Part shown: positions 35,246-62,552 of the stretch, piece after piece
How positions within the stretch are numbered: the first letter of the stretch is position 1
How the letters are laid out: each line of letters starts with the position of its first letter
Assembly: GCA_963789815.1 (NCBI GenBank)
Contig: CAWBMG010000013.1
Location: 729,569-793,568, forward strand
From: an uncultured Acidobacteriota bacterium
Lineage (GTDB): Bacteria; Acidobacteriota; Vicinamibacteria; Vicinamibacterales; UBA2999
Length of the DNA: 64,000 bases
Reading direction: 5' to 3'
Program-made: the position numbers and the translations under genes
Notes under the pieces: generated by a model
What the model was told of the DNA's origin: nothing
The model's input: the letters and a program-made list of their open reading frames with translations, nothing else
Databases searched by the model: none

Positions 35246-35267
35246 CGTTCGGGAAACTCCTCCCTGG

Positions 35268-35372
35268 GATTTACGAATCGACGAATTTACGTATTTACGA
35301 ATTGATTGGAGAATTCGCCAGCGACGCATTTCATCGCGATTCGACGATTCGTAGATTCGTCAATTCGTCAAT
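35268..35372. repeat. ACGAAT/ATTCGT family inverted-repeat element overlapping the 3' end of the TPR-like gene
   Basis: TTACGAATCGACGAATTTACGTATTTACGAATTG is opposed by CGATTCGACGATTCGTAGATTCGTCAATTCGTCAAT. Confidence 0.85.
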
Positions 35373-37262: not shown

Positions 37263-37325
37263 GGGGTCAGATCTTGAATTTTGCAAAGCAGGGCGTTCGC
37301 AGACGCAAAAAGCACGATCTGACCC
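37263..37325. repeat. GGGGTCAGATCTTGA-type palindromic element (diverged copy)
   Basis: GGGGTCAGATCTTGAATTTTGC ... GCAAAAAGCACGATCTGACCC. Related to the elements at 47214 and 57517. Confidence 0.85.
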
Positions 37326-37350
37326 TCCCGATGGTGACAGAATCCTTCCC

Positions 37351-42593: not shown

Positions 42594-42704
42594 ATCATTG
42601 ATGATCGATGATTGATGATCGATGATATTGATTGATGATCGATGATATTGATTGAGACGTCGATGACAATCATCGTTCATCAATCATCGTTCATCGATGA
42701 TTTT
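42594..42704. repeat. GATGATCGATGA family element (tandem roughly 20-nt units, then the opposing ATCATCG arm)
   Basis: GATGATCGATGATATTGATT appears twice plus partial units at 42594-42655. This is opposed by CAATCATCGTTCATCAATCATCGTTCATCGATGA. Confidence 0.9.
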
Positions 42705-42706
42705 TC

Positions 42707-42850
42707 TTAGCCGTTCGGTGCGACGCGCCGAAGATTTGAGCCAGTTCTTCTGCGTCGAACAAGCTGAGTGTCTGGCAGTCCTTGGATAAATCGAATGGAG
42801 AGGTCTGCGAACGCATCCGTGCGATTTTGAAGCTCGTCGGCTTTGCTCAT
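42707..42850 (-). pseudogene. truncated remnant of a four-helix-bundle (IVS-protein family) gene
   Basis: MSKADELQNRTDAFADLSIRFIQGLPDTQL matches the family N-terminal pattern L-x-x-R-T-x-x-F-A-x-x-x-I-x(5)-L-P-x-T. It then degenerates and stops after 48 codons at the repeat array. Codon GC3 is weak, and the region is visibly lower in GC than its neighbours. Confidence 0.4.
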
Positions 42851-42981
42851 GCCGAGAAGCAGGCAACGCAAATGCCAGACAGTCGGAGCAACCTGAAACC
42901 GTGCGATCACTCACCGATTCAAGGATGATGCGATCCCCCAATGCTCCGATGTCGCAATCAATGCTCAAATCATGCGGTTCC

Positions 42982-43030
42982 CGATCATCAATTCTTCAAT
43001 CATCAATCATCGTTCATCGATCATCGATGG
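42982..43030. repeat. ATCATCG/GATGAT family array (single orientation)
   Basis: GATCATCAATTCTTCAATCATCAATCATCGTTCATCGATCATCGATG read directly. Confidence 0.85.
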
Positions 43031-43035
43031 TTCCC

Positions 43036-44379
43036 TCAGTCTGGCAACTCCGCCGTTTGGGGCTCCGGTAACCAGAAGCTGGCGATGACGCCGATGACGT
43101 AGGCGATTGTCCCCACAACCGCACAAGCGTACGCCAGCCGGATCGGCAGGGAGCCGCCCGGCATCGACGTCACGAGCGACGTGGTCACGAGCGCGGCGCA
43201 GGTGCCAATCATCCTGCCTCCGACATTGGCCGCGAAGCTCTCACCAGTGCCGCGCAAGTGCGTCGGATAGACGCGGGGCAGATAGTTGCCCCAGAAGCTG
43301 AACTGCGCGATCGTTGCCAACCCCACAAGGAAAATCCCCCACTGCGCCATCGTAAGCCCCATGCTCGGGGTGAGCAAGAACACGATCGGAAGGAACACGA
43401 GTCCTGGGATCTGGAAGACATAGAGCAGCCGGCGACGGCCGACGATGATAGTGGCGAGCGCGGCGAGGATGACGCGGCCAGCCAACCCGCCGAATTCCTG
43501 ATAGGAGGACACGCCGCTGATCGTCTGCTCTCTCGCGACGCGGTCCAAGCCCCGCACTTCCTCGAGGCCCGGGATGATGCGGGGCATCTGCTGGATCGCT
43601 CCGAATGCCGCGGCGTAGGCGCACGCCATCATCACGGTCGTCACGATCGTCGTCCGTCGGAACTCCGGCGTGAACAAAGCGGCGAAGCTGGGGCGCTTCA
43701 GCGTGCCTGCCTTCTTCTTCAATTGCCACGTTGGAGAGTCGGGCAGAAACGGGCGGATGACGATCAGTGGGATCGCCGGAATGATTCCCGACATCAGCGT
43801 GTAACGCCACGCGACCTGCTCTCCGTGGATGAACGGGAACGACTGCTCGTAGGTGACGATCAGGTAGTACGCGCCGGCGACCATGATTCCGCCGAACGAG
43901 CCGAACGCCTGCGTGTAGCCGATGACCCGCTCTCTCAGCTTCGGATCCGGGAACAATTCCGCCAGCCAGGCTACGGCAGCGACGAACTCTACGCAGACGC
44001 CGACGAACATGCAGCACCGCCAGAACAGGAGATGCCAGACTGTCGTCGAGTAGCCAGCAAAGAATGCGGAAAAAGCATAGAGCAGGATGCTCCAGACGAG
44101 CACGCGGCGTCGGCCGAAGAGGTCAGTCAGGTAACCGCCGAGCAAGCCAAAGATGCCGCCTGCGACTGCTGGCACCCACTGCATCCAGCTGACCCAGTCG
44201 TTTACGAGCAGACTGTCCGGCGCGACGGCGAGCAGTTCGGACAGCGCCGGCCGAACGATGAGCGGCAGCATCAGCAGCGTGTAGGAGTCGAAAGCGAACC
44301 CGATTCCGGCGATGATGCAGATGAGCCACTGCACCGGGGTGATGGCCGAGGTCTTGTGAGTGCTCTGTGGGTCCGCCAT
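43036..44379 (-). CDS. MFS transporter
   Basis: 447 aa, about 12 TM segments, with DLFGRRRVL between TM2 and TM3. Confidence 0.85.
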   Translation of the reverse strand: MADPQSTHKTSAITPVQWLICIIAGIGFAFDSYTLLMLPLIVRPALSELLAVAPDSLLVNDWVSWMQWVPAVAGGIFGLLGGYLTDLFGRRRVLVWSILLYAFSAFFAGYSTTVWHLLFWRCCMFVGVCVEFVAAVAWLAELFPDPKLRERVIGYTQAFGSFGGIMVAGAYYLIVTYEQSFPFIHGEQVAWRYTLMSGIIPAIPLIVIRPFLPDSPTWQLKKKAGTLKRPSFAALFTPEFRRTTIVTTVMMACAYAAAFGAIQQMPRIIPGLEEVRGLDRVAREQTISGVSSYQEFGGLAGRVILAALATIIVGRRRLLYVFQIPGLVFLPIVFLLTPSMGLTMAQWGIFLVGLATIAQFSFWGNYLPRVYPTHLRGTGESFAANVGGRMIGTCAALVTTSLVTSMPGGSLPIRLAYACAVVGTIAYVIGVIASFWLPEPQTAELPD

Positions 44380-44533: not shown

Positions 44534-45658
44534 ATGAGTGTTTCTCCACAGGTTTCGGCCGCTGCATCGGAGGCCCATGTCCGTGCCGCTCGTGAGGCTC
44601 TGGACGCGTGGGTGCGAGAAGTCGTGGCCTGGCATTTCGATCCGTCAACAGGGTCCCCCTTCTGGCTCGAATACGCGTCGAAGCTCGGTTGGGATCCTCG
44701 CAAAGAGGTTCGTGGCTTCGCCGATCTGAAGCGCCTCGGTCCGTTCGAGGACGAGTGGCTTCGTGGTGGGCCTGTCGAGCGATGGGTGCCGAAGGGGTTG
44801 GCGGGCAAGCCCGTCTTCGTCTTCGAGACAGGTGGAACGACTGGCACTCCGAAAACGCGCGTCGCGTGCGAGGACTTCCGCACCGACTACGAGATATTCA
44901 GTACCACGCTCCCGGACGAGTTCTTTCCGAGAGGGTCCAATTGGCTCATGCTCGGCCCCTCGGGGCCGCGCCGTCTTCGCCTCGCGGTCGAGCATTTAGC
45001 GCAGCATCGAGGAGGAATCTCGTTTTGCGTCGATCTCGATCCTCGCTGGGTCATCAAACTGATCAAGAAGGGGTGGAGCGAGCACCTACAGGCATACAAA
45101 GACCACGTCATCGATCAGGCCGTCACCATCCTTCAGGCGAATCACGACATCCGGTGCATGTTCACCACGCCGAAGCTGCTCGAGTCGCTGGCGCTTCGGC
45201 TCGAGTCGATGGGAACCACGATTCGTAAGGCCGGTATTACTGGCATCTTCTCTGGCGGCACTGAATTCACGCCCCAGTGGAACCGCTTCGCGCACGAAGA
45301 GTTGCTTGACGGCGCGTATATGACGCCGACGTACGGGAATACGCTGATGGGTCTTGCCGCGAGCGCGCCCAGCGGGCCGCACAACAACTACAAAATTGCT
45401 TACTACGCGCCGCAGCCTCGCGCCGTCGTTGAAGTAGTCGAATTTGACGATGCCGACCGGACCGTCGAGTACGGTCAGACCGGGCGCGTCAAGCTGACCA
45501 CGCTGACCAAAGAGTTCTTCATGCCTGGTTTTCTCGAGCGCGACGAAGGTGAGCGCGAGCCTCCTTACGAGCGCTACCCGTGGGACGGTGTCAGCGGTGT
45601 CCGACCGTATCGCGCTTTCGCCTCTACGACGACGGTTGGGGTGTACCGAGAGTCATGA
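44534..45658 (+). CDS. adenylate-forming enzyme (ANL superfamily; PaaK/LuxE acyl-protein-synthetase-like)
   Basis: FETGGTTGTPK corresponds to the ANL phosphate-binding motif (T/S-S/G-G-T-T-G-x-P-K). At 374 aa it is similar in size to LuxE/PaaK-type enzymes. Subfamily assignment is tentative. Confidence 0.65.
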   Translation: MSVSPQVSAAASEAHVRAAREALDAWVREVVAWHFDPSTGSPFWLEYASKLGWDPRKEVRGFADLKRLGPFEDEWLRGGPVERWVPKGLAGKPVFVFETGGTTGTPKTRVACEDFRTDYEIFSTTLPDEFFPRGSNWLMLGPSGPRRLRLAVEHLAQHRGGISFCVDLDPRWVIKLIKKGWSEHLQAYKDHVIDQAVTILQANHDIRCMFTTPKLLESLALRLESMGTTIRKAGITGIFSGGTEFTPQWNRFAHEELLDGAYMTPTYGNTLMGLAASAPSGPHNNYKIAYYAPQPRAVVEVVEFDDADRTVEYGQTGRVKLTTLTKEFFMPGFLERDEGEREPPYERYPWDGVSGVRPYRAFASTTTVGVYRES

Positions 45659-45788
45659 CAACTCCCAACTTCCAACTACTGGCGCTTGACCAACTCCCAA
45701 TGGCGCTTGACCAACTCCCAACTCAATTCGAATCAGAGCGAAGGGTTTTGGAGTTTTTGGAAGTTGGCAATTTGGGAGTTGGGAGTTA
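45659..45788. repeat. CCAACTCCC/GGGAGTTGG family inverted-repeat element with internal 21-nt tandem
   Basis: TGGCGCTTGACCAACTCCCAA appears twice, opposed by TTGGAAGTTGGCAATTTGGGAGTTGGGAGTT. Confidence 0.9.
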
Positions 45789-45791
45789 GCC

Positions 45792-47228
45792 ATGCTTCAT
45801 CTTCCCGTCCTCCGCTGGGGACAACCCTATACAAGCATGGAGGTCGACCAGGTCGTGCACTTTGCGACCGGTGAGCCGATCGCGAGCGTGAGCCGCGCCA
45901 ACGGTGGCCTCGTACAACGCGACATGCGAAAGGCTTCGCGCGCCCGCGAGGTGCTGCGTGAGATCCCGATCGACGACCTCATCGCTCGCGTGGCGAAAGC
46001 CGGCGATCTCTATATGAACAGCACGTTGCCGATGGGTGACGGCACGCAGTCGGCAGACGAATTCGTGCGTGCGCAATCGGCCACCACGGGCCTTCCCGAA
46101 CACATGTGCCGCGCGAACATGAAGAAGAACGCGTTCGTGCTGAGCGAGATGCGCAACATCCTCGCATCGCTGACGCGCGGCCTCTCGCTGGACGTGCTGA
46201 CGACCGGGTACGGTGAGGAGCGCGGCGTTCCGATCAGTTATCAGGCCCAGAGCCCTGTGCTGGGCCTTGTGCTGCCCTCGAACTCACCTGGCGTGCACAC
46301 GCTCTGGCTGCCCATCATCCCGATGCAGCTCGGCTTGGTGCTCAAGCCCGGGCCCCAGGAGCCATGGACGCCGTATCGGATGGCAGAAGCGTTCTTCGCA
46401 GCCGGCGTTCCCCGTGAGGCAATTTCTATCTACCCCGGAGAGGCCGATGTTGGTGCGGCCGTGCTCGACGCGGCACCCCGTAGCCTCATCTTTGGTGGCA
46501 CGGCGACCGTCGATCGCTACCGAGGCAATCCGCGTGTGCAGGCGCACGGGCCAGGGTTTTCAAAGATCCTTTTGGGCGACGATCAGGTGGATCGTTGGGA
46601 GAGCTACCTCGATGTGATGGTCGAGAGCGTCTTCATCAACAGTGGCCGGAGCTGTATCAACTGTTCGGGTATCTGGGCGAGTCGCCACACGCGCGAGATT
46701 GCCGAGGCGCTGGCCCGTCGGTTGGCGGATGTCCGTCCGTTGCCGCCCGAAGATCCCAATGCGGGCCTGGCGGCGTTCACCGTGCCCGGAGTAGCGGAGG
46801 CGATTTCACAGTCCGTTGATGCGGACCTTCAGGCCCCAGGCGTTGTCGATGTGACGGCGAAGTACAGAAACGAAGCCCGTGTCGTCAAGCAGGGTCGCGC
46901 CGATTACCTGCTACCGACCGTCGTGCATTGCGACTCGCCCGATGCGGCGGTGGCGAAGAAGGAGTTCATGTTTCCGTTCGTGACGGTGGTCGAATGTCCC
47001 GAGGTACGGATGCTCGAGGCGATCGGTCCAACGCTCGTGTGCAGCGCCATCACGTGTCAGCCCGAGTTCCGTCGGCGCTTGGTGGATGCCGTCCACATCG
47101 ATCGCCTGAACCTGGGCCCCGTGCCGACGACTCGATTGAACTGGCTCCAACCGCACGAGGGGAACATCGTCGAGTTCTTGTTCCGTGCACGGGCGTTTCA
47201 AACAGCAGAGATGGGGGTCAGATCTTGA
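45792..47228 (+). CDS. aldehyde dehydrogenase superfamily protein (LuxC acyl-CoA reductase-like)
   Basis: VLKPGPQEPWTP, IFGGTATV and FINSGRSCINCSG (catalytic Cys context) are ALDH-fold motifs. 478 aa, immediately downstream of the adjacent adenylating enzyme. The last 5 codons and the stop lie inside a palindromic repeat. Confidence 0.7.
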   Translation: MLHLPVLRWGQPYTSMEVDQVVHFATGEPIASVSRANGGLVQRDMRKASRAREVLREIPIDDLIARVAKAGDLYMNSTLPMGDGTQSADEFVRAQSATTGLPEHMCRANMKKNAFVLSEMRNILASLTRGLSLDVLTTGYGEERGVPISYQAQSPVLGLVLPSNSPGVHTLWLPIIPMQLGLVLKPGPQEPWTPYRMAEAFFAAGVPREAISIYPGEADVGAAVLDAAPRSLIFGGTATVDRYRGNPRVQAHGPGFSKILLGDDQVDRWESYLDVMVESVFINSGRSCINCSGIWASRHTREIAEALARRLADVRPLPPEDPNAGLAAFTVPGVAEAISQSVDADLQAPGVVDVTAKYRNEARVVKQGRADYLLPTVVHCDSPDAAVAKKEFMFPFVTVVECPEVRMLEAIGPTLVCSAITCQPEFRRRLVDAVHIDRLNLGPVPTTRLNWLQPHEGNIVEFLFRARAFQTAEMGVRS

Positions 47229-47304
47229 TTTTTGCGTGCGGTGGCAGCTTCTTTTGGACTGAGTCAGGAGGTCCCGCCGCGCGCAAAAATCAAGATCTGA
47301 CCCC
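47214..47304. repeat. GGGGTCAGATCTTGATTTTTGCG palindromic element (23-nt arms, 45-nt loop)
   Basis: Left arm 47214-47236, right arm CGCAAAAATCAAGATCTGACCCC 47282-47304. Confidence 0.95.
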
Positions 47305-47318
47305 ATTGCAGCTTTGAA

Positions 47319-48629
47319 ATGAAGATCCTCTCGATTACGGCGGGCGCGGCGGGGATGTACTGCGGGAGTTGTTTTCGGGACAATGCGCTCGCCGCCGAGC
47401 TGATGTCGCGGGGCCACGACGTCACGCTTGTCCCCGTTTACACGCCGACGCGCACGGACGAGCCCAACGTGAGCCAGCGTCGCGTGCTCTTTGGCGGCAT
47501 CAGCGTGTACCTGCAGCAGCATTCTCGCTTGTTCCGGCGGCTGCCGCGCGTCGTGGATCGAATGTGGGACGCCCCCGGCGTCATCAAGGCATTTGCCAAC
47601 CGGTCGGCCACGACCGACCCGACGCTGCTCGGCGATCTCACGATCTCCACGCTGCAGGGCAAAGACGGCGTCCTTGGCCGCGAGTTCGAGAAGCTCGCGG
47701 AGTGGATGCGGGACGAGCCTGTGCCAGACGTCATCAACCTCCCGAACTCGATGCTCATCGCCCTGGCGGCGCCGCTGCGTGAAGCCTTCGGACGCCCGGT
47801 GTGCTGCACGCTCCAGGGCGAAGAGCTGTTCTTGAACGGCTTGCACTCGCCCTATCGTGAACGCGCCATTGAGTTGATCCGCAGTCACGTACCACACGTC
47901 GACCGCTTCATCGCCGTCAGCGACTACTGCGCCAGGTTCATGGCCGAGTTCCTTCGCATCCCCGAACGCCGCATCTCGGTCGTGCCACTCGGCATCAATG
48001 TCGCCGGCTACGAGCGACGCCAGAGCGAGAGCGACACGTTCCGCGTCGGCTACTTCGCCCGTGTCTCGCCGGAGAAGGGCTTGCATGTGCTGGCCGACGC
48101 GTACGTCCGACTCCGGCAGCGCGCACCGAAGGCGCGAATGCGACTGGATGCGGCCGGGTACATCTCGCCCGCGCAAGAAGGCTATTTGACCGACGTTCGC
48201 GGTGTGCTCGAGCGGGCGGGGCTGGGCGGAGAGTTCACCTATCGCGGCGAGATCGACCGGGCCCACAAGATCACGTTTCTTCAAGGCCTGGATGTGCTTT
48301 CGGTTCCCGCCACCTACGATGAGCCGAAGGGCATTTTCCTGCTGGAGGCGATGGCGTGCGGTGTCCCAGTCGTTCAGCCTCGGCGTGGCGCGTTTATCGA
48401 GATCGTCGAACGCACAGGTGGCGGCGTACTGGTGCGACCAGACGATCCAGCCAGTCTCGCGGACGCGTTGTACGATCTCGCGCAGGATCGCGTGAAGACG
48501 ACGGCGTTGGGCCAGCTCGCCTTCGACGCGGTGCACGCGCGCTACACGATCGCGAAATCCGCAGACGAGTTGCTCGACGTGTATCGTGGCGTTACATCAT
48601 CGATGATCGATGAACGAATGACCGGATGA
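47319..48629 (+). CDS. GT4-family glycosyltransferase (GT-B fold)
   Basis: MKILSITAGAAGMYCGSCFRDN N-terminus. C-terminal EPKGIFLLEAMACGVPVV (E-x7-E-type motif). Confidence 0.85.
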   Translation: MKILSITAGAAGMYCGSCFRDNALAAELMSRGHDVTLVPVYTPTRTDEPNVSQRRVLFGGISVYLQQHSRLFRRLPRVVDRMWDAPGVIKAFANRSATTDPTLLGDLTISTLQGKDGVLGREFEKLAEWMRDEPVPDVINLPNSMLIALAAPLREAFGRPVCCTLQGEELFLNGLHSPYRERAIELIRSHVPHVDRFIAVSDYCARFMAEFLRIPERRISVVPLGINVAGYERRQSESDTFRVGYFARVSPEKGLHVLADAYVRLRQRAPKARMRLDAAGYISPAQEGYLTDVRGVLERAGLGGEFTYRGEIDRAHKITFLQGLDVLSVPATYDEPKGIFLLEAMACGVPVVQPRRGAFIEIVERTGGGVLVRPDDPASLADALYDLAQDRVKTTALGQLAFDAVHARYTIAKSADELLDVYRGVTSSMIDERMTG

Positions 48630-48713
48630 AATCATCGATGAACGATGATCGATGATCGGATGATTTTTCATCGATGATTTGAGATCAATCATCGGTCATC
48701 GTTCATCGTTCAT
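48595..48713. repeat. GATGATCGATGA family element overlapping the glycosyltransferase 3' end
   Basis: CATCATCGATGATCGATGAACGAATGACC ... ATCATCGATGAACGATGATCGATGATCGGATGA ... CAATCATCGGTCATCGTTCATCGTTCAT. It encodes the terminal SSMIDERMTG of the GT. Confidence 0.9.
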
Positions 48714-48715
48714 AG

Positions 48716-49405
48716 ATGGGAAGTATGCTGACCGTCTCCAACCTCACCAAGCAGTACCCATCGCCCGCCGGGCCGCTGACCGTGCTCTCAGACGTGTCCC
48801 TGTCGCTGCAGCCAGGTGACGCGGCAGCGATCATGGGACCGTCGGGCAGCGGCAAGAGCTCGCTCCTCTACGTGCTCGGTGCGCTCGAACCGCCTTCCGC
48901 CGGGAGTGTCACGCTCGGAGGCGTCAACCCATTCGGCCTCCGCGCCACGGAGCTCGCTGATTTTCGCAATGCCAGGGTCGGTTTTGTTTTTCAGGACCAC
49001 TGCCTTCTCCCGCAGTGCTCGGTGCTCGAGAACGTGTTGGTCCCGACTCTGGTTGCGCGTGGTGCCGGTGGCGGAGCTGGAGAGGACGCGCGTCGCGCGC
49101 AGACGCTCGTCGAGCAAGTCGGCCTGACAGGGCGGAGCGACCATCGGCCAGGTCAGTTGTCGGGGGGCGAGCGGCAGCGCGTATCGGTGGCCCGCGCGCT
49201 CATTCGCCAGCCAGACCTCCTGTTGTGCGATGAGCCCACCGGGAATCTCGACCAGGCGTCGGCGTCCATCGTTGCGTCGCTCTTGCTGGACTTGCATCGG
49301 CAGCAGCGGAACATCCTGATCGTGGTGACGCACAGCGCGAAGCTGGCAGCGGAGTTCCCGATCCGGTTCGAGATCGTCGATTCGCATCTGCATCGAGTGT
49401 CGTGA
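48716..49405 (+). CDS. ABC transporter ATP-binding protein (LolD/MacB-type)
   Basis: Walker A GPSGSGKSS, signature LSGGERQR, Walker B LLLCDEPTGNLD, H-loop VTHS. Confidence 0.9.
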   Translation: MGSMLTVSNLTKQYPSPAGPLTVLSDVSLSLQPGDAAAIMGPSGSGKSSLLYVLGALEPPSAGSVTLGGVNPFGLRATELADFRNARVGFVFQDHCLLPQCSVLENVLVPTLVARGAGGGAGEDARRAQTLVEQVGLTGRSDHRPGQLSGGERQRVSVARALIRQPDLLLCDEPTGNLDQASASIVASLLLDLHRQQRNILIVVTHSAKLAAEFPIRFEIVDSHLHRVS

Positions 49406-49414
49406 CCCAAGGCG

Positions 49415-49729
49415 ATGGCTGTTGCGCCCGCCGATCTGCTCGTGCTCATCAGAGAAGGGCGTCCCCCAGTCGTTCTCGACGTGCGCTCTGATGCGGAATT
49501 CGCGCAGGGCCACGTCCCTGGCGCGATCCATATTCCGTTCTGGCAGTTACCTCGTCGGGCGAATGACATCCCGAGCCGCCATGGCGATCCGGTCGTGGTG
49601 TACTGTGGACACGGGCCGCGCGCGTGGTATGCGGCGGCGGCGTTGCGCCGGTGCGGCTTCGAGCGTGTTCAGCTTCTCGAGGGCCACATGTCGCAGTGGA
49701 AGCGCGCTGGCCTTCCAGAAGAGCGTTGA
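49415..49729 (+). CDS. rhodanese-like domain protein
   Basis: VLDVRSDAEFAQGHVPGAIHIP and the active-site loop VVYCGHGPRA. Confidence 0.85.
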   Translation: MAVAPADLLVLIREGRPPVVLDVRSDAEFAQGHVPGAIHIPFWQLPRRANDIPSRHGDPVVVYCGHGPRAWYAAAALRRCGFERVQLLEGHMSQWKRAGLPEER

Positions 49730-49743
49730 CTCAGGATGGACGC

Positions 49744-51025
49744 ATGACTGACGTAGGTGCTCGTGTCTGGCCGGCGCCGCGCGAAGGTGAGCGGTTCTAC
49801 TATGGCTGGATCGTGCTGGCCGTGGCTGCGCTCGCGATGGTGGCGACGCTGCCGGGGCGTACCCAGGGCCTTGGCCTTATTACCGAGCCGCTCCTTCGAG
49901 ATCTCGGGATAAGCCGTGTCGCCTTCGCGCAGGTGAACCTTGTGGCCACTCTCGTCGGCTCGCTGTTCTGCTTCGGCGTTGGCCGGTTGATCGACCGCGT
50001 CGGCAGCCGCGTCGTGCTGACGGTCACTGTGCTTCTCTTGGGGACTGTCGTTCTGACGATGAGCCGGGTAAGCGGCCTTGCCGCGATGCTCGTGCTCGTC
50101 ACGCTGACGCGCGGCTTCGGGCAGAGCGCGCTATCTGTCGTCAGTCTGGCGATGGTCGGCAAGTGGTTTCGGCGGCGTCTCACGCGCGCGATGGCCGTGT
50201 ACGCACTGGTGATGAGCATCGGTTTCATGGCGGCGTTCCCCGCCGTGGGCGCGCTTGTGCTGGGGAGCGGCTGGCGCACGGCCTGGGCTGCCATCGGGGC
50301 GTGTCTGGTGTTCGGAGTTGCGCCGATTGCGTGGCTGTTCGATCGCTCCTCGCCGGAATCGCTTGGCCTCGAGGTGGACGGTGGCGGCGATGTTGTCGAG
50401 CAGCGGGACGTCGCCCATGCGCAGGCGACTCTGGCGGAAGCCGTGAGGTCGCCTGCATTCTGGGTCTTCGCCTTGGCCAGCTCTTTGTACGGCCTTGTCG
50501 CGTCGGGGATTGGCCTTTTCAACGAGTCGATCCTGGCGCAACGCGGATTCGAGCCGCAGGTCTACTACACCGCGCTCGCGGTTACAGCGATCACTGGTTT
50601 GGCCGGGAACTTCGCCGCCGGGGCATTCGCCGATCGCGGTTCACTCCGCCATGTGCTCGTTGCCGCACTGCTGCTCATGACACTCGGTCTCGCCGCGTTG
50701 GCTCATGTGACGACCGTGGCGCATGTCATCGCACAGGCCATCGTCATGGGAATCGCCGGTGGCTTCGTGATGGTCGTGTTCTTCAGCTTTTGGGGGCGCG
50801 CGTATGGACGCACGCATCTCGGGCGTATCCAGGGTGCGGCGCAGGCCATGACCGTGGTTGCCTCCGCCGTCGGACCGCTGTTTCTGGCCCTTATGCGTGG
50901 AGACGACCGGCTCGTACGCCGTAGCGTTCTATCTGCTCGCAGCGGTCGTCGCCGCTCTTGCCGTCGCGGCTGTTGTCGTTCCCATCCCACCAGGCGCACT
51001 CGGCGCCCCCGTCGTCGCACGATAA
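49744..51025 (+). pseudogene. MFS transporter whose reading frame shifts +1 near 50893 (frameshift or sequence error)
   Basis: From 49744 the frame gives 11-12 TM segments up to AVGPLFLAL, then an Arg-rich non-membrane stretch. The +1 frame from 50894 reads CVETTGSYAVAFYLLAAVVAALAVAAVVVPIPPGALGAPVVAR with a stop at 51023-51025, which is a normal last TM helix. Confidence 0.7.
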
Positions 51026-51072
51026 GGCGTCATGCGACCCACAAGTGCCCCCCAGGTCGGTCGCTGAGACAC

Positions 51073-54000
51073 ATGCTTCGTTTTCTCATTCTTCGCAGCC
51101 TGACCTACTACTGGCGCACGAACGTTGCCGTCGTTCTGGGCGTGGCCACGGCGGTGGCGGTTCTGGCAGGCGCGCTGCTCGTCGGTGAGTCGGTGCGGGG
51201 CAGCCTGCAGGACCTTGTCCTGCAACGGTTGGGTCGAACCGACATCGTCCTGACCTCCGCAGGGTTTTTCCGCGAACAGCTCGCGACAGATATCGAAACT
51301 CAATCGGAATTCCCAGCCACCTTCAGCGGTCTCAGCCCGCTCGTCATTGCTCAAGGAGTGGTCACGGCTCAAGAGAGCGGACGACGGGTGGGGCAAGTGT
51401 TGGTTTATGGGATCGACGACCGCTTCTGGCGGTTTCATGGAGTGAACGGCGTGTCAGGCCCCAGCGACCGCGAGGCTCTACTCAGCCCGGCGTTAGCCTC
51501 GCAGCTTCGTCTCGAGCAGAAGGACGCCGTTCTCGTCCGGGTGCAACGTCCAACCGACGTTCCCCTCGAGTCGCTCCATGGCCGCCGCGACGACGTGGGT
51601 CGCACGCTGCGCCTGATCGTTCGCGCCGTCGTCCCGACTGGCCTGCTTGGTGAGTTTTCCTTGGCGCCCCAGCAGGCCGACGTGAAGGCGGTGTTCGTGC
51701 CGCTGTCACGCCTTCAGCAGGAGCTCGAGGTCGAAGGGCGTGTGAACACGCTTCTTGTGGCAGCTCGCGCCGGCCGCGAAGCTGGCGCATCGGAGGCCTT
51801 CGAACTGCTCGTCAACGCGCGCGCCTCGCTCGAGGACGTCGGCCTGACCGTGCGCGCGCTCGAGGATCGTCATGCTCTCGTCGTGGGGTCGGCGGCAGGC
51901 GTGCTCGAAGACCGCCAGGCATCCGCGGTTCTACAGGCGCTCAGTGGCACCGGTATGAGCGGCCAACCACTGTTCACCTATCTCGCGAACACGATTCGAC
52001 TTGGAGGTGAAGAGGAAGGGGAGGAACGGGAGGCCAAGGAGAAAGAGGAAAGGGAGAAGGGGGAAAGGGGGAAGGGGGAAAGGGAGACGGAGAGCGAAGG
52101 CAGTCATGAGCTCCCATACTCGCTGGTCACGGCCATTGATCTGCGCGCCGTGTCCCCGTCGGTCTCGACGTCGCCTGATGCCGACGGCCGACCACCCATT
52201 CTGCTGAACACGTGGGCCGCTTCCGATCTCAAGGCTCGCCCGGGGGACGTGGTAACGATGACTTACTACGTGTGGGCAGAGCCCGGGCTACTCGTGACGC
52301 GCAACACCGAGTTTCACCTGGCCGGTGTCGTGCCGATTGAGGCCGCCGACCGTGACTTCGCACCGGCCTTTGCCGGCATCACGGACTCCGTCTCTCTTTC
52401 CGACTGGGACCCGCCCTTTCCGATCGACTTGCGTCGCGTTCGTCCCGCGGACGAGGACTATTGGAAGCGCTATCGCACGACGCCGAAGGCGTTTGTGCCT
52501 CTCGAAGTCGGCCAGCGGCTCTGGCGGTCGCGCTATGGCGCGCTCACATCCGTGCGCGTGACACCCGCGGCCGGCCAGTCGTTCGAGGACTCGCGGCAGG
52601 AACTCGCGACCCGGCTGCGAAGCGCGATCGATCCCGTATCGACTGGTATGGCCGTCCGTGCTGTGCGCGCAGACGGACTGACTGCCTCGCACGGCGCGAC
52701 GGACTTCGGCGCCTACTTCACCTATTTCAGCTTCTTTCTGGTGGTTTCAGCCCTGTTGCTCGCGGCGCTCTTCTTCAGGCTCGGCGTCGAACAGCGTGTG
52801 CGCGAGGTTGGCCTGCTTCGCGCAGTCGGGTTCGGTCCAAGGGCAGTCAGGCGGCTGTTCTTGGGAGAAGGCCTACTTCTCGCGATAGTCGGGAGCATGC
52901 TGGGAGTAGCCGGTGCGATCGCGTACGCCGGGTTGATGATGGCGGCCCTCAGGTCCTGGTGGGTGGATGCCGTTGGCACAACGTCACTCACGCTTCACAT
53001 CTCAGCGACGTCGCTGCTGACCGGTGCCGTCGGCGGCATCGCGGCCGCGGTTGTCTGCATCTGGTGGACGTTGCGGGCGCTTGGGCGCATTTCGGAACGG
53101 AGTCTCCTCGCCGGAAATGTGACACTCGACGACAACTTCCAACTTCCAACTTCCCAACTCCCAAGGAACCCAGCCACCCAGCTACCTAGCTATCTCGCTA
53201 TCCGCCAGCGGCGATTACTTCTCGCGACGATCGCGCTCGTCATCATCGGCATAGCGCTGCTGCTGTCTGCCGCGGCGGGCAGAGCGGCTCCGGCAGGGGC
53301 CTTCTTTGGCGCCGGCTCATCGCTTCTCGGCGCGGCGCTCTGTGTGAGTCTGTTCATGCTCCGGCGGCAGCCTCGACACCCAATCGAAGGGCGCGGCTGG
53401 CTTCCGGTTCTTCGTCTGGGCCTTCGAGGCGCCACGTATCGTCCCGGTCGTAGCGTCTTGTCGATTGCGGTGATCGCCTCGGCCACGTTCATCCTCATTT
53501 CCGTGGACGCCTTTCGACGCGACGGCCGGCTCGCCGATGGCGGCCGGCAGTCCGGCGTTGGTGGGTACTCCCTCATCGTCGATACGCTGCTCCCCGTGGT
53601 CAACGACCCCAACACAATCGAGGGTCGCAACGCGCTGAGCCTCTCGGCCCTGGACGCCGCCGTCACCATCGAGCCGTTCCGCCTACTGCCCGGAGACGAT
53701 GCGAGCTGTTTGAATTTGTACGAGCCGACGAACCCGCGCATTCTGGCGGCGCGCGACCGGTTCATCGATGACGGACGCTTCGTGTTCAGCGACTCCCTTG
53801 CCTCGAGTGGTGCGGAACGGGCGAATCCATGGCTGTTGTTGCGGCGTCGCGAAACCGACGGCGCGATTCCCGTAGTCGCCGATGCCAACTCGATGACGTA
53901 CGTCCTCCACCGCCAACTGGGCCAAGACATCGTCCTGCGGCGCGGGACAGGAGAAGTGCGTTTGCGACTCGTTGGCGCATTGCGCGACAGCATCTTCCAG

Positions 54001-54576
54001 GGAGAGCTGTTGATGTCGGAGTCCAATTTCCTGCGCGTGTTCCCGGAGCAAGAGGGTTATCGGGTGCTGCTGGTCGAAGACCGAATGGGACGAACCGATG
54101 AGGTGGCGAGAACGATCGAGGGAGCGTTGTTGGATCTTGGAGCCGACGCGACGGGGACAGGCGAGCGCCTGGCTCAGTTTCACAGGGTCGAGAACACGTA
54201 TCTGTCCACGTTTCAGACGCTCGGAGGCCTGGGGCTGTTGCTCGGTACGGTTGGGCTTGCGGCGGTCCTTCTTCGTAACGTGCTGGAGCGGCGTCGAGAG
54301 CTGGCGCTGCTCGGCGCCGTCGGTTATCGTCGAAGTCACTTCACGTCAATGATCGTGGTTGAGAACATGCTCCTTGTCGGCTGCGGCCTCGTCTCAGGGG
54401 CATCGTGTGCATTGTTGGCGATTGCGCCTGCCGCGGCAGAACGGGGCAGCGCGCCATTCACGACTGGCGCTGCGCTGTTGCTGGTTGGTGTGATGGCGAC
54501 TGGGCTGCTCGCATCGATCGTCGCGATTCGTGCCGCGATCCACGCGCCGCTTCTCGAGTCGCTGAGGTCTGAGTAG
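51073..54576 (+). CDS. large ABC transporter permease with duplicated FtsX-type domains
   Basis: Start at [44 protein letters not shown]. Two TM4 bundles are separated by large periplasmic domains. Contains two repeat-derived in-frame insertions. Confidence 0.8.
   Translation: [1167 protein letters not shown]
52003..52100 (+). repeat. 98-nt polypurine tract inside the permease CDS encoding [33 protein letters not shown]
   Basis: I counted 6 pyrimidines in 98 nt. GGGGAAAGG-type units are related to the GGAGGGAACGG intergenic family. Confidence 0.9.
53134..53200. repeat. CCAACTTCC/CCAACTCCC plus CCAGCTACCTAGCTA motifs read in frame inside the permease CDS
   Basis: AACTTCCAACTTCCAACTTCCCAACTCCCAAGGAACCCAGCCACCCAGCTACCTAGCTATCTCGCTATC encodes [23 protein letters not shown]. 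Confidence 0.9.
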
Positions 54577-54652
54577 CTAGGTTGCTAGGTAGCTGGGTAG
54601 CTGGGGTGTTTGGGAGTTGGACAAGAATTAGTTGGGAGTTGGGAGTTTCCGA
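54577..54652. repeat. TAGCTGGGTAGCT and GGGAGTTGG motif block
   Basis: GCTAGGTTGCTAGGTAGCTGGGTAGCTGGGG followed by TTTGGGAGTTGGACAAGAATTAGTTGGGAGTTGGGAGTT. Confidence 0.9.
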
Positions 54653-55921
54653 TTGAGCCTCGCTCGTCTCGTGTTCGTCGCTGTGCTCGTGGCTCTCGCC
54701 GACGTGCCGCTTGGGGCCGAGAACTGGCCGCAGTGGCGTGGGCCGTCGCTGAATGGGACGAGCGCCGAGACCAACCTGCCCGTGCGCTGGTCGACCACCG
54801 AGAACATCACCTGGAAGCTTGCGCTGCCCGAGCGCTCGGGATCCACGCCGATCGTCTGGGGGGACCACGTCTTTCTGAGCGTTGGTGAGGGATCCGACCT
54901 CTCGTTCTGGGCGCTAGATCGCGCGCGAGGCACGGTACGGTGGAAGCGGCCTCTCGGCAATGGCAACCGGCGGATGATGAAGCAGCAGATGTCATCACCC
55001 TCACCCGTGACCGATGGCCGATCGGTGTGGGTGATGACGGGCACCGGACTGCTCAAGGCGTTCGACTTCGCCGGCCAAGAGCTCTGGTCGCGCAGCATCC
55101 AGCAGGACTACGGACGGTTCGGCCTCTTGTGGGGCTACGCCTCGTCGCCGCTGCTCTTCGAGGATTCGCTGTACGTGCAGGTGCTGCACGGCATGATGAC
55201 TGACGACCCGTCGTACATCCTGCGAATCGACAAAGCCACTGGCAAGACACTCTGGCGGGTCAATCGACTCACACGGGCTCGCTCGGAATCGCCAGACGCG
55301 TACACCACACCGGCGCTCCTGCGATACGGAACCACGACAGAGATCGTGATCACCGGCGGCGACGTGGTCACGGGACACGATCCGGCGAGCGGCAAGGAAC
55401 TGTGGCGCGCAGACGGCCTGAATCCTCAGAACGACGGGAGTTACCGGCTCGTCGCATCGCCGGTCGTGCATGGCGAAATGATCGTTGCGCCGTCGCGCGA
55501 GCGGCCGATGCTGATGCTGAAGGCTGGCGGTCGGGGCGACGTGACGAAGTCTCACGTGCTCTGGACGTTTGGCAATGGCCCCGATGTTCCGACGCCGGTC
55601 ACCGATGGGACCTATGTGTATTCCATCAATGATCGGGGCATCATGTACTGTCTGGATGCGAAGACGGGGAAGACTACTTATGGTCCTCAGCGGCTGCGGA
55701 GCGCGTCGTACAGCGGCTCGGCGGTGCTCGCCGATGGCAAGTTGTACATAACCGACGAAGACGGTGTAACGAGCGTGGTGCAGGCCGGTCCGAAGTTCGC
55801 GCTGCTCGCCGAGAACGATCTGAGTGATTACACGCTCAGTTCACCCGCTATCTCCGACGGTCAGATTTTTGTGCGGACCGCGGCGTACCTGTATGCAATC
55901 GGATCAAGGAGACAGAAATGA
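54632..55921 (+). CDS. PQQ-like beta-propeller repeat protein, secreted
   Basis: Signal peptide followed by [13 protein letters not shown]. The annotated TTG at 54632 lies inside the repeat, so the alternative TTG at 54653 ([11 protein letters not shown]) is equally plausible. Confidence 0.85.
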
Positions 55922-56021: not shown

Positions 56022-57506
56022 ATGGTTCCGAAGGTACTGAAAGCGGTCGCGCGCGCGGCGGGAGTTCTCCTCGTGATTGGCGGCGTGTTGTACCTGTTCT
56101 TTGGTCTTCGGGTCGTGCTGGATGGCGGTAGCATGCCCCACCTGCGGTTTGTCGAGTCCTCCCAGCAGCAGGCAGAACGCATTCAGCGACATCGAGATGC
56201 TCAGCGAGCACAGGCACCCCCGGTTGGCACACCACCCGTCACCGCGGCACTGCCAACAGAGACTGGCGCTGCTGTCGCCGGTGCGGTAGCCGAAGCGCTT
56301 CAACCCTCGGCAGGATCCACGGCTCCGCCAACGTCCTCCGAACCGCCGTACTGGACGGACTTCCGCGGCCCGCGCCGCGACGGCGAGTATCGCGAGAGTG
56401 CCCTCATCGCCACCTGGCCGGCGGGCGGGCTGACGCCAATGTGGAAGCAGCCAGCTGGCGCCGGATACGCGTCATTCGTCGTCGCTCACGGACGCGCATT
56501 TACGATCGAACAGCGGGGCGCCTCAGAAGTGGTGGCGGCGTACGATGTGATCACGGGTCGAGAGCTGTGGACCAATACCTGGAACGCAGAGTTCCGCGAG
56601 TCCTTGGGCGGTGACGGTCCGCGCGCCACGCCCACGTGGGCGAGTGGCCAGGTCTTCGTGCTGGGGGCAAAAGGCGAGCTGCGCTCCCTGGACGATGCCA
56701 GCGGCCGAGTGGCATGGCGGACCAACATCCTCGAGGACAGTGGCGCCACCAACCTTCAGTGGGGTATGGCGGCCGCTCCTCTCGTGGTGGACGACACCGT
56801 CATTGTTCTGCCAGGCGGGCCGAGCGGACAGTCGGTGGTTGCCTACGATCGTCGCACCGGCAAGCGCGCGTGGTCGGCATTGGGGGATCAGCAGGGTTAC
56901 TCGTCCCCGATGCTCGTCACAATCGGCGGCGTGCGACAGATCCTGGTGTTCAGCGCGACGCGGCTCATGGGTCTTGCCATTGGACGCGGCGAGCTGCTGT
57001 GGGAATACCCCTGGATCGGACCGATGGGCATCAATGCCGCGCAGCCGCTCCTCGTCGGAGAGAACAGGATCTTTTTGTCGTCGGGATACGGAACCGGTGC
57101 CGCAGTGATCGAGATCGCTGGAGGCGCCGGCAGTTTTTCGGTGCGCGAAGTCTGGCGCAACACTCGCATGAAGAACCGATTTGCGAGTTCGGTCCTCTAC
57201 GAGGGTGTTATCTATGGGTTCGACGAATCGATTCTGGCCGCTGTGGACGCGGCGACTGGTGAGCTCAAGTGGAAAGCGGGTCGGTACGGCTACGGACAAC
57301 TGTTGCTCGCCGACGGCCATCTGATCGTGCTCAGCGAAGACGGAGACCTTGCCCTCGTGCGCGCGAGGCCAGACCGTCATGAAGAGTTGGCGCGCTTCCC
57401 GGTGCTGCAAGGCAAGACGTGGAACCCCCCGGCGATTGCCGGTGGGTATCTCCTCGTGCGCAACCTGGCGGAAATGGCAGCGTTCGATCTGAGGTCGGTG
57501 CGCTGA
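56022..57506 (+). CDS. PQQ-like beta-propeller repeat protein with N-terminal TM anchor
   Basis: GAGGAG RBS. TM segment AAGVLLVIGGVLYLFFGL, a linker, then PYWTDFRGPRRDG and propeller blades. Confidence 0.8.
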   Translation: MVPKVLKAVARAAGVLLVIGGVLYLFFGLRVVLDGGSMPHLRFVESSQQQAERIQRHRDAQRAQAPPVGTPPVTAALPTETGAAVAGAVAEALQPSAGSTAPPTSSEPPYWTDFRGPRRDGEYRESALIATWPAGGLTPMWKQPAGAGYASFVVAHGRAFTIEQRGASEVVAAYDVITGRELWTNTWNAEFRESLGGDGPRATPTWASGQVFVLGAKGELRSLDDASGRVAWRTNILEDSGATNLQWGMAAAPLVVDDTVIVLPGGPSGQSVVAYDRRTGKRAWSALGDQQGYSSPMLVTIGGVRQILVFSATRLMGLAIGRGELLWEYPWIGPMGINAAQPLLVGENRIFLSSGYGTGAAVIEIAGGAGSFSVREVWRNTRMKNRFASSVLYEGVIYGFDESILAAVDAATGELKWKAGRYGYGQLLLADGHLIVLSEDGDLALVRARPDRHEELARFPVLQGKTWNPPAIAGGYLLVRNLAEMAAFDLRSVR

Positions 57507-57516
57507 CGGTGCCAAC

Positions 57517-57579
57517 GGGGTCAGATCTTGATTTTTGCGCGAAGGAGACTTGCAGGCGCAAAAATCAAGATCTGACCCC
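57517..57579. repeat. GGGGTCAGATCTTGATTTTTGCGC palindromic element (24-nt arms, 15-nt loop)
   Basis: Arms at 57517-57540 and 57556-57579 are perfectly complementary. Confidence 0.95.
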
Positions 57580-57594
57580 CCTGATAGGTTACTC

Positions 57595-58881
57595 ATGTCC
57601 ATGATCCGTTCCTGTGCGATCGTCGCGGTGCTCGTGTTGATGTCGTGGCCATTGGTTGGTCTGAATGGCCAGGAGTCTGCGCCCGCAGTTCGGATGATCG
57701 CCGACGAAGGCGAGGGCGGGAAGTATTGGCCCCGGTGGCGTGGCGCGTCCGGCCAAGGCTTGGCTGCGGGCACCGGCTATGCCGACACATGGTCACCGAC
57801 CGAGAACGTGCTGTGGAAAACGCCGCTGCCTGGCCGCGGCAATTCGTCCCCGATCATCTGGCGAGATCGGATCATCCTGACCACGGCGTACGACAACGGC
57901 AGACGACTATCGGTGTTGGCGTACCGTCTGTCTGACGGCGTGCAGATGTGGGAGGCCTTTGCGCCGCAAGGCCGCGTCGATGGTGATTCCCACTACAAGA
58001 ACGGCCACGCTTCGTCGACGGCGGCAACTGACGGCGAGCGCATCTACGTGTCGTTTGGCACCCGCGGGCTCTTCGCGTTCGATCTCGACGGAAAACTACT
58101 CTGGCAGCGAGACCTCGGACCGATGGATGCGTATCACGGCACGGCTGGATCTCCGCTTCTGTACAAGAACCGCGTCATCCTCTACCAGGATCAGTTCTCG
58201 GGATCGTTTGTCGCGGCCTTCGACACGCGCACCGGCCAGCAGGTCTGGCGGACGGCTCGAAATGCGTCGGCGGGATGGGGCACCCCCATCGCAGTTCGAG
58301 TCGTCGATCACGACGAGATCATCGTCAACAGCCAGCAGGCCGTGCAGGCGTATGACCCCGCGAATGGCCAGGAGTTGTGGCGCTGCGGGGGAATGAGCTA
58401 CGAGGTCATTCCGACGCCCGTGGTCGGGTTTGGCATGGTGTTCTGTTCGTCGGGACGCGCGGGCCCGACCCTGGCGATCAGGCCAGGAGGGAAGGGGGAC
58501 GTCACACGCACTCACCTGGGCTGGAGCAGTCCTCGCGGGTCGCCATTTGTCCCGTCGCCCATCCTTTATGGCGACCACCTGTACATGGTCAACGACATGG
58601 CGAGCATCGTCACCACCTTCGAGGCGACAAGCGGCAAGGTGATGTGGCAGGGGCGGCTCGGTACGGCGCAGCGCGAAGGCTTTTCCGCGTCGCCGGTCGC
58701 CGTGGACGGCAAGGTGTTCTTCACCAACGACGATGGTGAGACGTTCGTGTTGAAGGCGGGCGGAGCTTTCAACCTGCTGCACGTGAACAAGCTCGACGAG
58801 CGTGTCCTCGCGTCGCCGGCGCTCGTGGACGGGCGCTGGTACTTTCGAACCGACCGTCACCTCATGGCGATCGGGCGATAG
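57595..58881 (+). CDS. PQQ-like beta-propeller repeat protein, secreted
   Basis: Start at MSMIRSCAIVAVLVLMSWPLVG; the upstream extension is repeat-derived. KYWPRWRGASGQG followed by blades. Confidence 0.85.
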   Translation: MSMIRSCAIVAVLVLMSWPLVGLNGQESAPAVRMIADEGEGGKYWPRWRGASGQGLAAGTGYADTWSPTENVLWKTPLPGRGNSSPIIWRDRIILTTAYDNGRRLSVLAYRLSDGVQMWEAFAPQGRVDGDSHYKNGHASSTAATDGERIYVSFGTRGLFAFDLDGKLLWQRDLGPMDAYHGTAGSPLLYKNRVILYQDQFSGSFVAAFDTRTGQQVWRTARNASAGWGTPIAVRVVDHDEIIVNSQQAVQAYDPANGQELWRCGGMSYEVIPTPVVGFGMVFCSSGRAGPTLAIRPGGKGDVTRTHLGWSSPRGSPFVPSPILYGDHLYMVNDMASIVTTFEATSGKVMWQGRLGTAQREGFSASPVAVDGKVFFTNDDGETFVLKAGGAFNLLHVNKLDERVLASPALVDGRWYFRTDRHLMAIGR

Positions 58882-62207: not shown

Positions 62208-62552
62208 GATCACCACTCCCTCAACCACCTCGCTGCCACTGGTGCCCGCCGCATGGGCATCCAAGGTCGTTTGACGTTCTGACGGCGCGGGTATGCCAGC
62301 CGGCGCCTCCTGGTTCCGCCCGCCGAAGAATCTCGCTCCGGCTCGCATCCCTTCCGCGGGCGCGTCGACTATGAGCTGACTCGGGGCGGAGTCTGTCAGG
62401 CGCAATCGGACCGCCAGTGGTCATTCGTACGTCCGGGAGCGCATGGACGAAAGTCGACTCGGAAGTCTCGCTCCGCTCCATTCTCGTGTCAGTGGGGCGG
62501 CGGGCTCCACAAGTCGGCGCCGGCTGGCACACCCGCACCGTGAGCGCGTGCA

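Follow-up and report, generated by a model that had tools for sequence, protein, structure and literature searches.

We analysed a stretch of 64,000 nucleotides from an uncultured Acidobacteriota bacterium of the order Vicinamibacterales (GenBank assembly GCA_963789815.1, contig CAWBMG010000013.1, forward-strand positions 729,569 to 793,568), referred to here as the window. Positions 44534-54576 of the window hold seven consecutive genes on the plus strand, an array that a first-pass annotation had proposed and that was confirmed. Gene calling in this high-GC DNA was weighted for third-codon-position GC content (GC3), and families were assigned by Pfam and NCBIfam searches. The first two genes, at 44534-45658 and 45792-47228, encode an EhpF-like adenylating subunit of 374 amino acids (aa), hereafter P1, and an EhpG-like reductase of 478 aa with the aldehyde dehydrogenase (ALDH) fold, hereafter P2. 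They are followed by genes for a GT4 glycosyltransferase (47319-48629), a LolD/MacB-type ATP-binding cassette (ABC) ATPase (48716-49405), a single-domain rhodanese, a frameshifted major facilitator superfamily (MFS) transporter and an 1167-aa double-FtsX permease (51073-54576). The assignment of P1 and P2 as an EhpF/EhpG-type two-protein carboxylate reductase, predicted to convert an acid to an aldehyde, is well supported by sequence comparison.

P1 carries the motif ETGGTTGTPK, from which an ANL-type adenylating enzyme had been proposed. Both the motif and homology to EhpF support that proposal: P1 matches the sequence of the EhpF crystal structure (PDB 3L2K/3HGU) at E 5e-43 over residues 23-362 of 374, which is essentially its full length, and an E. 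coli plasmid with a complete ehp phenazine cluster encodes an EhpF that is 35% identical to it, also at full length. The proposal has to be narrowed to the N-terminal domain, however, and the Pfam AMP-binding match is sub-threshold (24.9 vs 29.9 bits); it covers residues 202-319, in the C-terminal third of P1, and stops at profile position 372 of 384, and the Pfam search found no ANL C-terminal domain (AMP-binding_C) in the protein. PP-binding and NAD_binding_4 domains are absent from P1, P2 and the neighbouring proteins, and neither a carrier protein nor a phosphopantetheinyl transferase is encoded near the pair. Full-length P1 homologues on Streptomyces plasmids bear the annotation 'arylcarboxylate reductase'. 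One of these, on a Streptomyces angustmyceticus plasmid (L002, 6823-13044), lies amid MqnD-, MqnE- and MqnC-like genes of the futalosine pathway, and no ALDH gene is among those listed for the surrounding 17 kb. The context is faintly suggestive of a secondary pathway in which 1,4-dihydroxy-6-naphthoate is reduced; a second such Streptomyces locus adjoins a polyketide synthase gene. An origin of the annotation from GriC was looked for in both loci. A protein of 824 aa in the representative library (P0222) consists of a class-III aminotransferase (32-437) fused to an EhpF-like domain (484-824). This fusion fits an aldehyde product and suggests a route from acid through aldehyde to amine in some organisms.

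P2 begins 133 bp downstream of P1. It matches Pfam Aldedh at E 6.7e-19 and is 25% identical to EhpG (E 3e-30, about 88% coverage). When family members were aligned, Cys288 (in the motif GRSC) and Asn164 were invariant in 75/75 sequences, and the position of the general base, Glu268, was occupied by His in 71 of the 75 (His252 in P2) and by Q, R, Y or L in the rest; P2 also retains the nucleotide-binding residues. Conservation of Cys and Asn together with loss of the general-base Glu is the pattern expected for formation and reduction of a thioester without hydrolysis. A search of 72,556 plasmids with P2 (E ≤ 1e-20) returned only five matches, each of them an ALDH gene whose record contains a P1 homologue as well. 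The matches on Burkholderia, Halomarina and Halalkalicoccus plasmids lie no more than about 150 bp from the P1 homologue, and the two on Streptomyces plasmids lie about 2-2.4 kb from it on the opposite strand. P2 is 27-31% identical, over the full length, to the plasmid ALDHs of Streptomyces, Burkholderia and the two haloarchaea.

The prototype pair comes from Pantoea agglomerans, where it belongs to the D-alanylgriseoluteic acid (phenazine) cluster, and from related ehp clusters. EhpF is reportedly an ANL enzyme without the C-terminal domain, its substrate is said to be a redox-active heteroaromatic dicarboxylate, and EhpF and EhpG have reportedly been proposed to convert phenazine-1,6-dicarboxylate to the 6-formyl compound via an acyl-adenylate. 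The window pair resembles them in several respects: its genes adjoin, its ANL enzyme (about 355-375 aa) lacks the C-terminal domain, its ALDH-fold partner (about 455-480 aa) retains Cys and Asn but not the general-base Glu, and its proposed chemistry leads from acid through acyl-AMP to aldehyde. It differs in that its clade is chromosomal, belongs to two other phyla, is 70-90% conserved and has no phenazine genes; its partners are GT4, ABC/FtsX, beta-propeller or iron alcohol dehydrogenase genes, whereas those of the ehp pair are non-ribosomal peptide synthetase and tailoring genes, and a conserved His stands at the Glu position where secondary-metabolite members have Q, R, Y or L. A phenazine pathway was considered and rejected: no phz gene was identified when genes were called in the 34-64 kb part of the window, nor in the gene families that related loci of Acidobacteriota or Planctomycetota have in common. 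GriC and GriD, of the grixazone pathway of Streptomyces griseus, are a functional analogue by their described chemistry. As reported from experiment (Suzuki 2007, cited in PMC10179220), the AMP-binding protein GriC makes the acyl-AMP of 3-amino-4-hydroxybenzoate (3,4-AHBA) and GriD reduces it to the aldehyde; as described there, the two act in a pigment pathway, unlike the context of the window.

P1 and P2 had previously been likened to LuxE and LuxC. The acid-to-aldehyde logic of that comparison stands, given the full-length homology to EhpF/EhpG and the precedent of GriC/GriD, whereas membership of the LuxE, LuxC or PaaK families does not: profile searches gave no match to PF04443, PF05893 or TIGR02155, and at E ≤ 0.01 Pfam returned only sub-threshold AMP-binding and Aldedh. 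What the pair is predicted to share with LuxE/LuxC and with the carboxylic acid reductases (CAR) is activation of a carboxylate by ATP, followed by NAD(P)H-dependent reduction of a thioester to the aldehyde. It differs from LuxE/LuxC in lacking those two Pfam matches. A CAR (A-PCP-R) was rejected on the grounds that P1, P2 and their neighbours have no carrier domain and no reductase domain of the short-chain dehydrogenase/reductase (SDR) type; the pair is without a phosphopantetheine arm, and its reductase has the ALDH fold instead of the SDR fold. Some sources label close homologues of P1 'PaaK-like adenylate-forming protein', and P2 has weak matches to StyD, PaaZ and semialdehyde dehydrogenases, which would suit a PaaK-like phenylacetate-CoA ligase acting with a catabolic ALDH in oxidative aromatic catabolism. 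We regard this as extremely improbable. In P1, Pfam and NCBIfam searches found neither the AMP-binding_C_2 domain nor a TIGR02155 match, whereas a genuine PaaK-like neighbour in a Phycisphaerae locus (L170) scores 204-236 bits, and related loci carry their PaaK-like genes (431-443 aa) separately. NCBIfam ALDH models score P2 at 15-40 bits against cut-offs of 450-900, the Glu needed for hydrolysis is missing, and no paa genes lie nearby. Wherever the substrate of a relative is known or annotated, it is an aromatic or heteroaromatic acid.

The distribution of the pair was examined at several depths. Among 1.84 billion representative proteins the P1 family is small, with 1548 clusters at E ≤ 0.001 and 318 at E ≤ 1e-30. 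A word-indexed search gave at least 8000 close homologues; the best 120 are 84-90% identical to P1, and the named sources among them are Vicinamibacterales or Acidobacteria. An exact look-up of the window protein returned no record. A scan of one genome per species, queried with an eight-sequence alignment, found P1 relatives in at least 571 species genomes. The best 80 of these (70-89% identity) belong to Acidobacteriota and Planctomycetota and include Vicinamibacterales, Thermoanaerobaculia, Terriglobia/Bryobacteraceae, Pirellulales, Planctomycetaceae and Gemmatales. On a neighbour-joining tree most sequences fall into phylum groups; internal distances are short, and a long stem leads to the more distant family members. 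Comparison of the window with two related genomes gave identities of 84-86% for P1, 82-84% for P2, 70-72% for the ABC ATPase, 68-69% for the GT4 and 58-63% for the permease, so the reductase proteins are the most constrained of the cluster; the excess of P1 over the ATPase, its identity of 70-77% across phyla and its presence in hundreds of species are a mark of important function. The two genes also stay together in these soil and water bacteria. A P2 orthologue lies within 1.5 kb of the P1 orthologue in 49/53 acidobacterial and 19/20 planctomycete loci with enough sequence, and within 4 kb in the remaining four acidobacterial loci.

The link between the pair and the GT4 and ABC/FtsX genes had been proposed from adjacency, with conservation of the neighbourhood named as the check. 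Neighbours were counted in the 45 acidobacterial loci that have 8 kb or more of sequence to each side, and an ABC gene was found in 34, an FtsX gene in 30 and a GT4 gene in 20. In relatives, the five genes (the pair, GT4, ABC and FtsX) are 1-32 bp apart, an operon-like spacing. The position of GT4 varies with respect to the P1 and P2 orthologues (F and G): it follows G or precedes F (L053, L073, L084), and in one locus (L069) the entire GT4-ABC-FtsX unit is inverted and displaced. A sister pair, F'/G', was found on metagenome contigs; F' shares 60-69% identity with P1, and G' no more than 43-48% with P2. It is accompanied by a GT4 (in most sister loci; 52-59% identical to that of the window), an ATPase (57-66%), a permease (42-58%) and a downstream propeller (68-69%). 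Some sister loci have G'-GT4-ABC-FtsX divergent from F', and others have a propeller gene between F' and G'. In L125 (7980-16530), and likewise in L123, F'-GT4 is followed by an inserted Mrr-type restriction endonuclease gene and then by a main-type F-G, so that L125 holds both adenylating subtypes but a single ALDH partner. A third branch, the P0121 type, occurs in Phycisphaerae. Its locus L170 begins with ABC and GT4 (divergent), an unknown protein, the PaaK-like ligase, two propellers, F and G, and continues with genes for an iron alcohol dehydrogenase (Fe-ADH), a HemN-like radical SAM protein, a CmlS/QhpG/LodB-like flavoprotein, DUF3311 and a sodium:solute symporter; the GT4 of this locus is 43% identical, at full length, to that of the window. 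Synteny thus survives rearrangement, extends to the sister pair and recurs in a second phylum. Retention of GT4-ABC-FtsX with two diverged versions of the pair, in rearranged orders and in two phyla, argues for a functional link.

Main-clade loci of Planctomycetota have the pair followed by Fe-ADH, a propeller and a radical SAM gene. Fe-ADH occurs near the pair in 23 loci across phyla, a frequency that fits an aldehyde passed on to an alcohol. The vicinity of the pair in Vicinamibacterales can also hold genes for Fe-ADH, the radical SAM protein, the flavoprotein, the PaaK-like ligase and the symporter.

The GT4 assignment made from the sequence alone held up in Pfam, where both domains score above threshold (Glyco_transf_4, 65 bits against a cut-off of 28.5; Glycos_transf_1, 72 bits against 26.4); Glyco_trans_1_4 and Glyco_trans_4_4 also match, making four GT4/GT1 families above threshold. 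No NCBIfam equivalog reaches its cut-off, all falling far below, and the acceptor domain fits no named subfamily. Family searches reported no transmembrane domain in the protein. A pterin lead was set aside: the GT4 matches tetrahydrobiopterin glucosyltransferase at E 1e-7 and has a pterin dehydratase neighbour in one subclade, which we judged to be generic GT4 similarity and local synteny. The transporter, first described as a LolD/MacB-type ATPase with a duplicated FtsX permease, was likewise corroborated, with Pfam ABC_tran (E 2e-33) in the ATPase, and with FtsX in two stretches and MacB_PCD (27.6 bits against a cut-off of 27) in the permease, the composition of a type VII ABC transporter. 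With MacB, LolCDE, DevCA and YbbAP it shares a LolD-like ATPase, FtsX modules and a MacB-like periplasmic domain. It differs from them in that the permease holds both FtsX modules in one chain, of 1096-1272 aa in the orthologues of 37 loci; in that the permease scores far under the LolCE, DevC, ADOP and MacB cut-offs and is neither an ADOP nor a LolCE equivalog in NCBIfam; and in that solved relatives match only one of its FtsX modules, and weakly (E 4e-5). A LolCDE system was rejected on scores, the best NCBIfam match of the ATPase being LolD at 228 bits against a cut-off of 307.75 and the permease scoring 25 against 362 bits for LolCE. The permease of the window also has a 32-aa insert (52006-52101), encoded by purine-rich low-complexity DNA, within the conserved periplasmic-domain stretch TYLANTxR-GxRExPYSLVTA; the insert is absent from eight orthologues.

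A GT4 and a MacB/DevC-like permease as conserved partners, with a weak match of the permease to DevC (E 2e-7), recall the heterocyst glycolipids and their DevBCA exporter. They could thus indicate a fatty-acid reductase with the same acid-to-aldehyde chemistry, whose fatty aldehyde or alcohol would enter an ether-linked or alkyl glycolipid through the GT4 and be exported by the FtsX permease. A glycolipid of this kind was the product first suggested for the cluster. The missing LuxE and LuxC matches count against it, however, as do the lack of any conserved nearby gene for an acyltransferase, acyl carrier protein, glycerol-lipid enzyme or membrane-fusion protein (DevB) and the aromatic substrates of the relatives. 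None of the conserved neighbours suggests fatty acids, glycerolipids or ether lipids, and we consider the lipid reading possible but unsupported, and quite unlikely.

The reductase pair and the GT4/transporter module are best explained, in our judgement, as one system, a view that we hold with slightly more confidence than doubt. P1 would activate a carboxylic acid to the acyl-adenylate at the expense of ATP, and P2 would accept the acyl group on Cys288, in thioester form, and reduce it with NAD(P)H to the free aldehyde, the direction of the reaction being what we infer from the homology and catalytic residues. In Planctomycetota, Fe-ADH would carry the aldehyde on to the alcohol. In Vicinamibacterales, including the window, the cytoplasmic GT4 may glycosylate the reduced product, and the LolD-like ATPase with the double-FtsX permease may hand the product or its glycoside to the envelope or periplasm, as the conserved neighbourhoods suggest.

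Several observations weigh against this interpretation. The nearest characterised relatives are only 25-35% identical and come from antibiotic tailoring, and the identity of P1 across phyla, 70-77%, is unusual for tailoring enzymes and is left unexplained by the model. Fe-ADH, HemN-like radical SAM, symporter, PaaK-like and flavoprotein genes were looked for in the window and none is present, so the step from aldehyde to alcohol is not locally encoded there. No membrane-fusion or outer-membrane partner was seen near the transporter, and the hairpin-forming repeats between the window genes mean that co-transcription is not assured there. One large Vicinamibacterales subclade has the order F-[DUF4399]-G-ABC-FtsX, without GT4. 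Main-clade loci of Planctomycetota, Terriglobia and Thermoanaerobaculia have no GT4, ABC or FtsX gene within 10 kb of the pair; the link to the transporter thus does not hold everywhere, and part of it could reflect shared ancestry within Vicinamibacterales. This last point leads to the view that the GT4/ABC/FtsX adjacency is inherited gene order in that group and that the pair reduces an imported environmental acid, possibly aromatic. In keeping with that view, the main-clade pair outside Vicinamibacterales is followed by Fe-ADH in place of the three genes; a sodium:solute symporter with DUF3311, or an MFS gene, adjoins the pair in Acidobacteria, Phycisphaerae and a haloarchaeal plasmid; and the aminotransferase-EhpF-like fusion raises an amine as a possible end product. 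Inherited order, however, accounts poorly for a GT4-ABC-FtsX unit that stays with the pair despite changes in order and strand (L053, L069, L073, L084), that also accompanies the sister pair, with a G' at 43-48% identity and in divergent arrangements, and of which ABC and GT4 stand again beside the pair in a Phycisphaerae genome. We consider this explanation unlikely, though it deserves to be kept in view.

Secreted beta-propellers recur near the pair and are left unexplained by the reductase model. A BamB/PQQ_2-type propeller gene (54632-55921, plus strand; Pfam PQQ_2, E 1.8e-27) follows the permease gene in the window, and its orthologue (62-82% identity) lies downstream of FtsX in many loci. 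Propeller genes adjoin or split the two reductase genes in both phyla, and some of these pair-associated propellers match Beta-prop_ACSF4 above threshold. Within 34-59 kb of the window there are at least six BamB/PQQ_2 propellers, and those examined carry signal peptides; the six paralogues, within 25 kb, are at 33920-35329 and 36019-37248 (both minus strand), 39991-41238, 54632-55921, 56022-57506 and 57535-58881. The flavoprotein of L170 (1576-17071, Phycisphaerae) is 53% identical to that of L004 (18985-21113, Vicinamibacterales), and the combination of flavoprotein, PaaK-like ligase and HemN-like gene, seen in two independent loci only, recalls the maturation systems of protein-quinone cofactors.

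Observations of this kind could be read in another way, with the pair running in reverse as an energy-conserving oxidation of aldehydes (aldehyde to a thioester on P2, then acyl-AMP on P1, then ATP from pyrophosphate), or maturing or modifying a heteroaromatic carboxylate cofactor that would be exported for the periplasmic propellers. The very high conservation and a distribution like that of primary metabolism would suit such a role, as would the persistence of secreted PQQ_2/Beta-prop_ACSF4 propellers in both phyla, sometimes between F and G, the QhpG/LodB-like flavoprotein and HemN-like radical SAM genes of some loci, and the heteroaromatic, redox-active nature of the substrate that EhpF is said to use. 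The evidence is, however, purely circumstantial: the propellers are abundant paralogues, at least six in the window, and may adjoin the pair by chance, the flavoprotein was found in those two loci only, and we know of no precedent for ATP formation by the EhpF/EhpG-type family. Both versions appear very unlikely to us.

The remaining two genes of the array had been counted as parts of the module, a view that comparison with related loci does not bear out. Besides the window, only three related loci (L008, L018, L019) have a rhodanese gene like that at 49415-49729 (plus strand; Pfam Rhodanese, E 4e-23) among the transporter genes or following them. An MFS gene of the type at 49744-51025 (plus strand) is present in just the last of the three, where the orthologue is intact. 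The rhodanese and the frameshifted MFS are lineage-specific inserts and not part of the core. The reading frame of the MFS gene, which is 76% identical to its orthologue up to the shift, is lost near 50893-50900 by a one-base frameshift: frame 0 at 50885-50905 reads ...AVGPLFLALMRGDD, and the expected continuation, ...CVETTGSYAVAFYLLAAV..., lies in frame +1 together with the last transmembrane helix and the stop codon (51023-51025). The shift fuses the MFS open reading frame (ORF) in frame to that of the FtsX permease, so that 49624-54576 appears as a single ORF of 1650 aa. It is either the mark of a pseudogene or an assembly indel. A second MFS gene, related to Sugar_tr and aromatic-acid symporters, lies divergently upstream of the pair (43036-44379, minus strand; Pfam MFS_1 and Sugar_tr), and matches the NCBIfam aromatic acid/H+ symporter subfamily far under cut-off. 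Its orthologue (57-82% identity) stands upstream of the pair in about 14 acidobacterial loci, and it is possibly an importer or exporter for the pathway.

Repeat elements had been noted between the genes, and palindromic repeats were indeed found in the intergenic gaps. Repeats of three families occupy the 86-133 bp that separate each of the first four genes from the next, and they fold into long hairpins (-46 to -72 kcal/mol, z -4 to -10.6). A CCAACTCCCAAC-type palindromic repeat at 45655-45795 (-52.5 kcal/mol, z -4.0) fills the gap between P1 and P2, and 25 CCAACTCCCAAC sites occur in the window. At 47214-47304 lies a near-perfect GGGGTCAGATCTTGATTTTTGCG-type palindrome with 39-nt arms (-72.4 kcal/mol, z -10.6), further copies of which are at 37263-37326 and 57517-57579, and at 48629-48719 a ATCATCGATGAACGATGATCG-type repeat (-45.9 kcal/mol). 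The three families resemble repetitive extragenic palindromes (REPs) and are dispersed between genes throughout the window, for example also at 42594-43030 and 48590-48719. The permease ORF itself contains one CCAACT-type repeat (53131-53200), in frame, in the variable linker between the two FtsX modules; with a copy just past the stop codon (54574-54620) it forms an inverted pair with 85% complementarity. The P1 and P2 orthologues abut in related loci, and the spacing of 1-32 bp in relatives marks the repeat-filled gaps of the window as secondary. A promoter and terminator scan gave counts at chance level and was uninformative on operon structure. The region is flanked by a gene for an 877-aa Ser/Thr protein kinase fused to PD40 beta-propeller repeats (37351-39984) and by a second duplicated MacB_PCD/FtsX permease gene, of ordinary size (878 aa; 59769-62405, minus strand).

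To our knowledge, EhpF/EhpG-type and GriC/GriD-type enzymes have so far been known only from the tailoring of antibiotics and pigments. Our literature searches turned up passing mentions of EhpF and EhpG, and no account of this conserved chromosomal clade or of its GT4, transporter and alcohol dehydrogenase partners. We tentatively raise the idea, which we think improbable yet worth stating, that an EhpF/EhpG-type reductase is here the heart of a housekeeping pathway widespread in Acidobacteriota and Planctomycetota, in which a specific acid, possibly (hetero)aromatic, would be reduced, glycosylated and delivered by a dedicated double-FtsX transporter to the periplasm or envelope, where it would serve the propellers or the cell surface. 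If true, the product would be an envelope compound or cofactor of a new kind, and a type VII ABC transporter would be serving a novel purpose. Two-protein carboxylate reductases that work without a carrier are of interest for biocatalysis, and the finding would take them beyond a few antibiotic clusters to a family that is large in nature. The enzymology is predictable, and it is the breadth, the conservation and the identity of the product that make the pair a good target. Vicinamibacterales and Planctomycetota are abundant and poorly understood, with few cultured members; for these bacteria the finding supplies a chemical hypothesis, the ATP- and NAD(P)H-dependent conversion of an acid to an aldehyde, together with a defined set of partners in the GT4, the double-FtsX transporter, Fe-ADH and the propellers.

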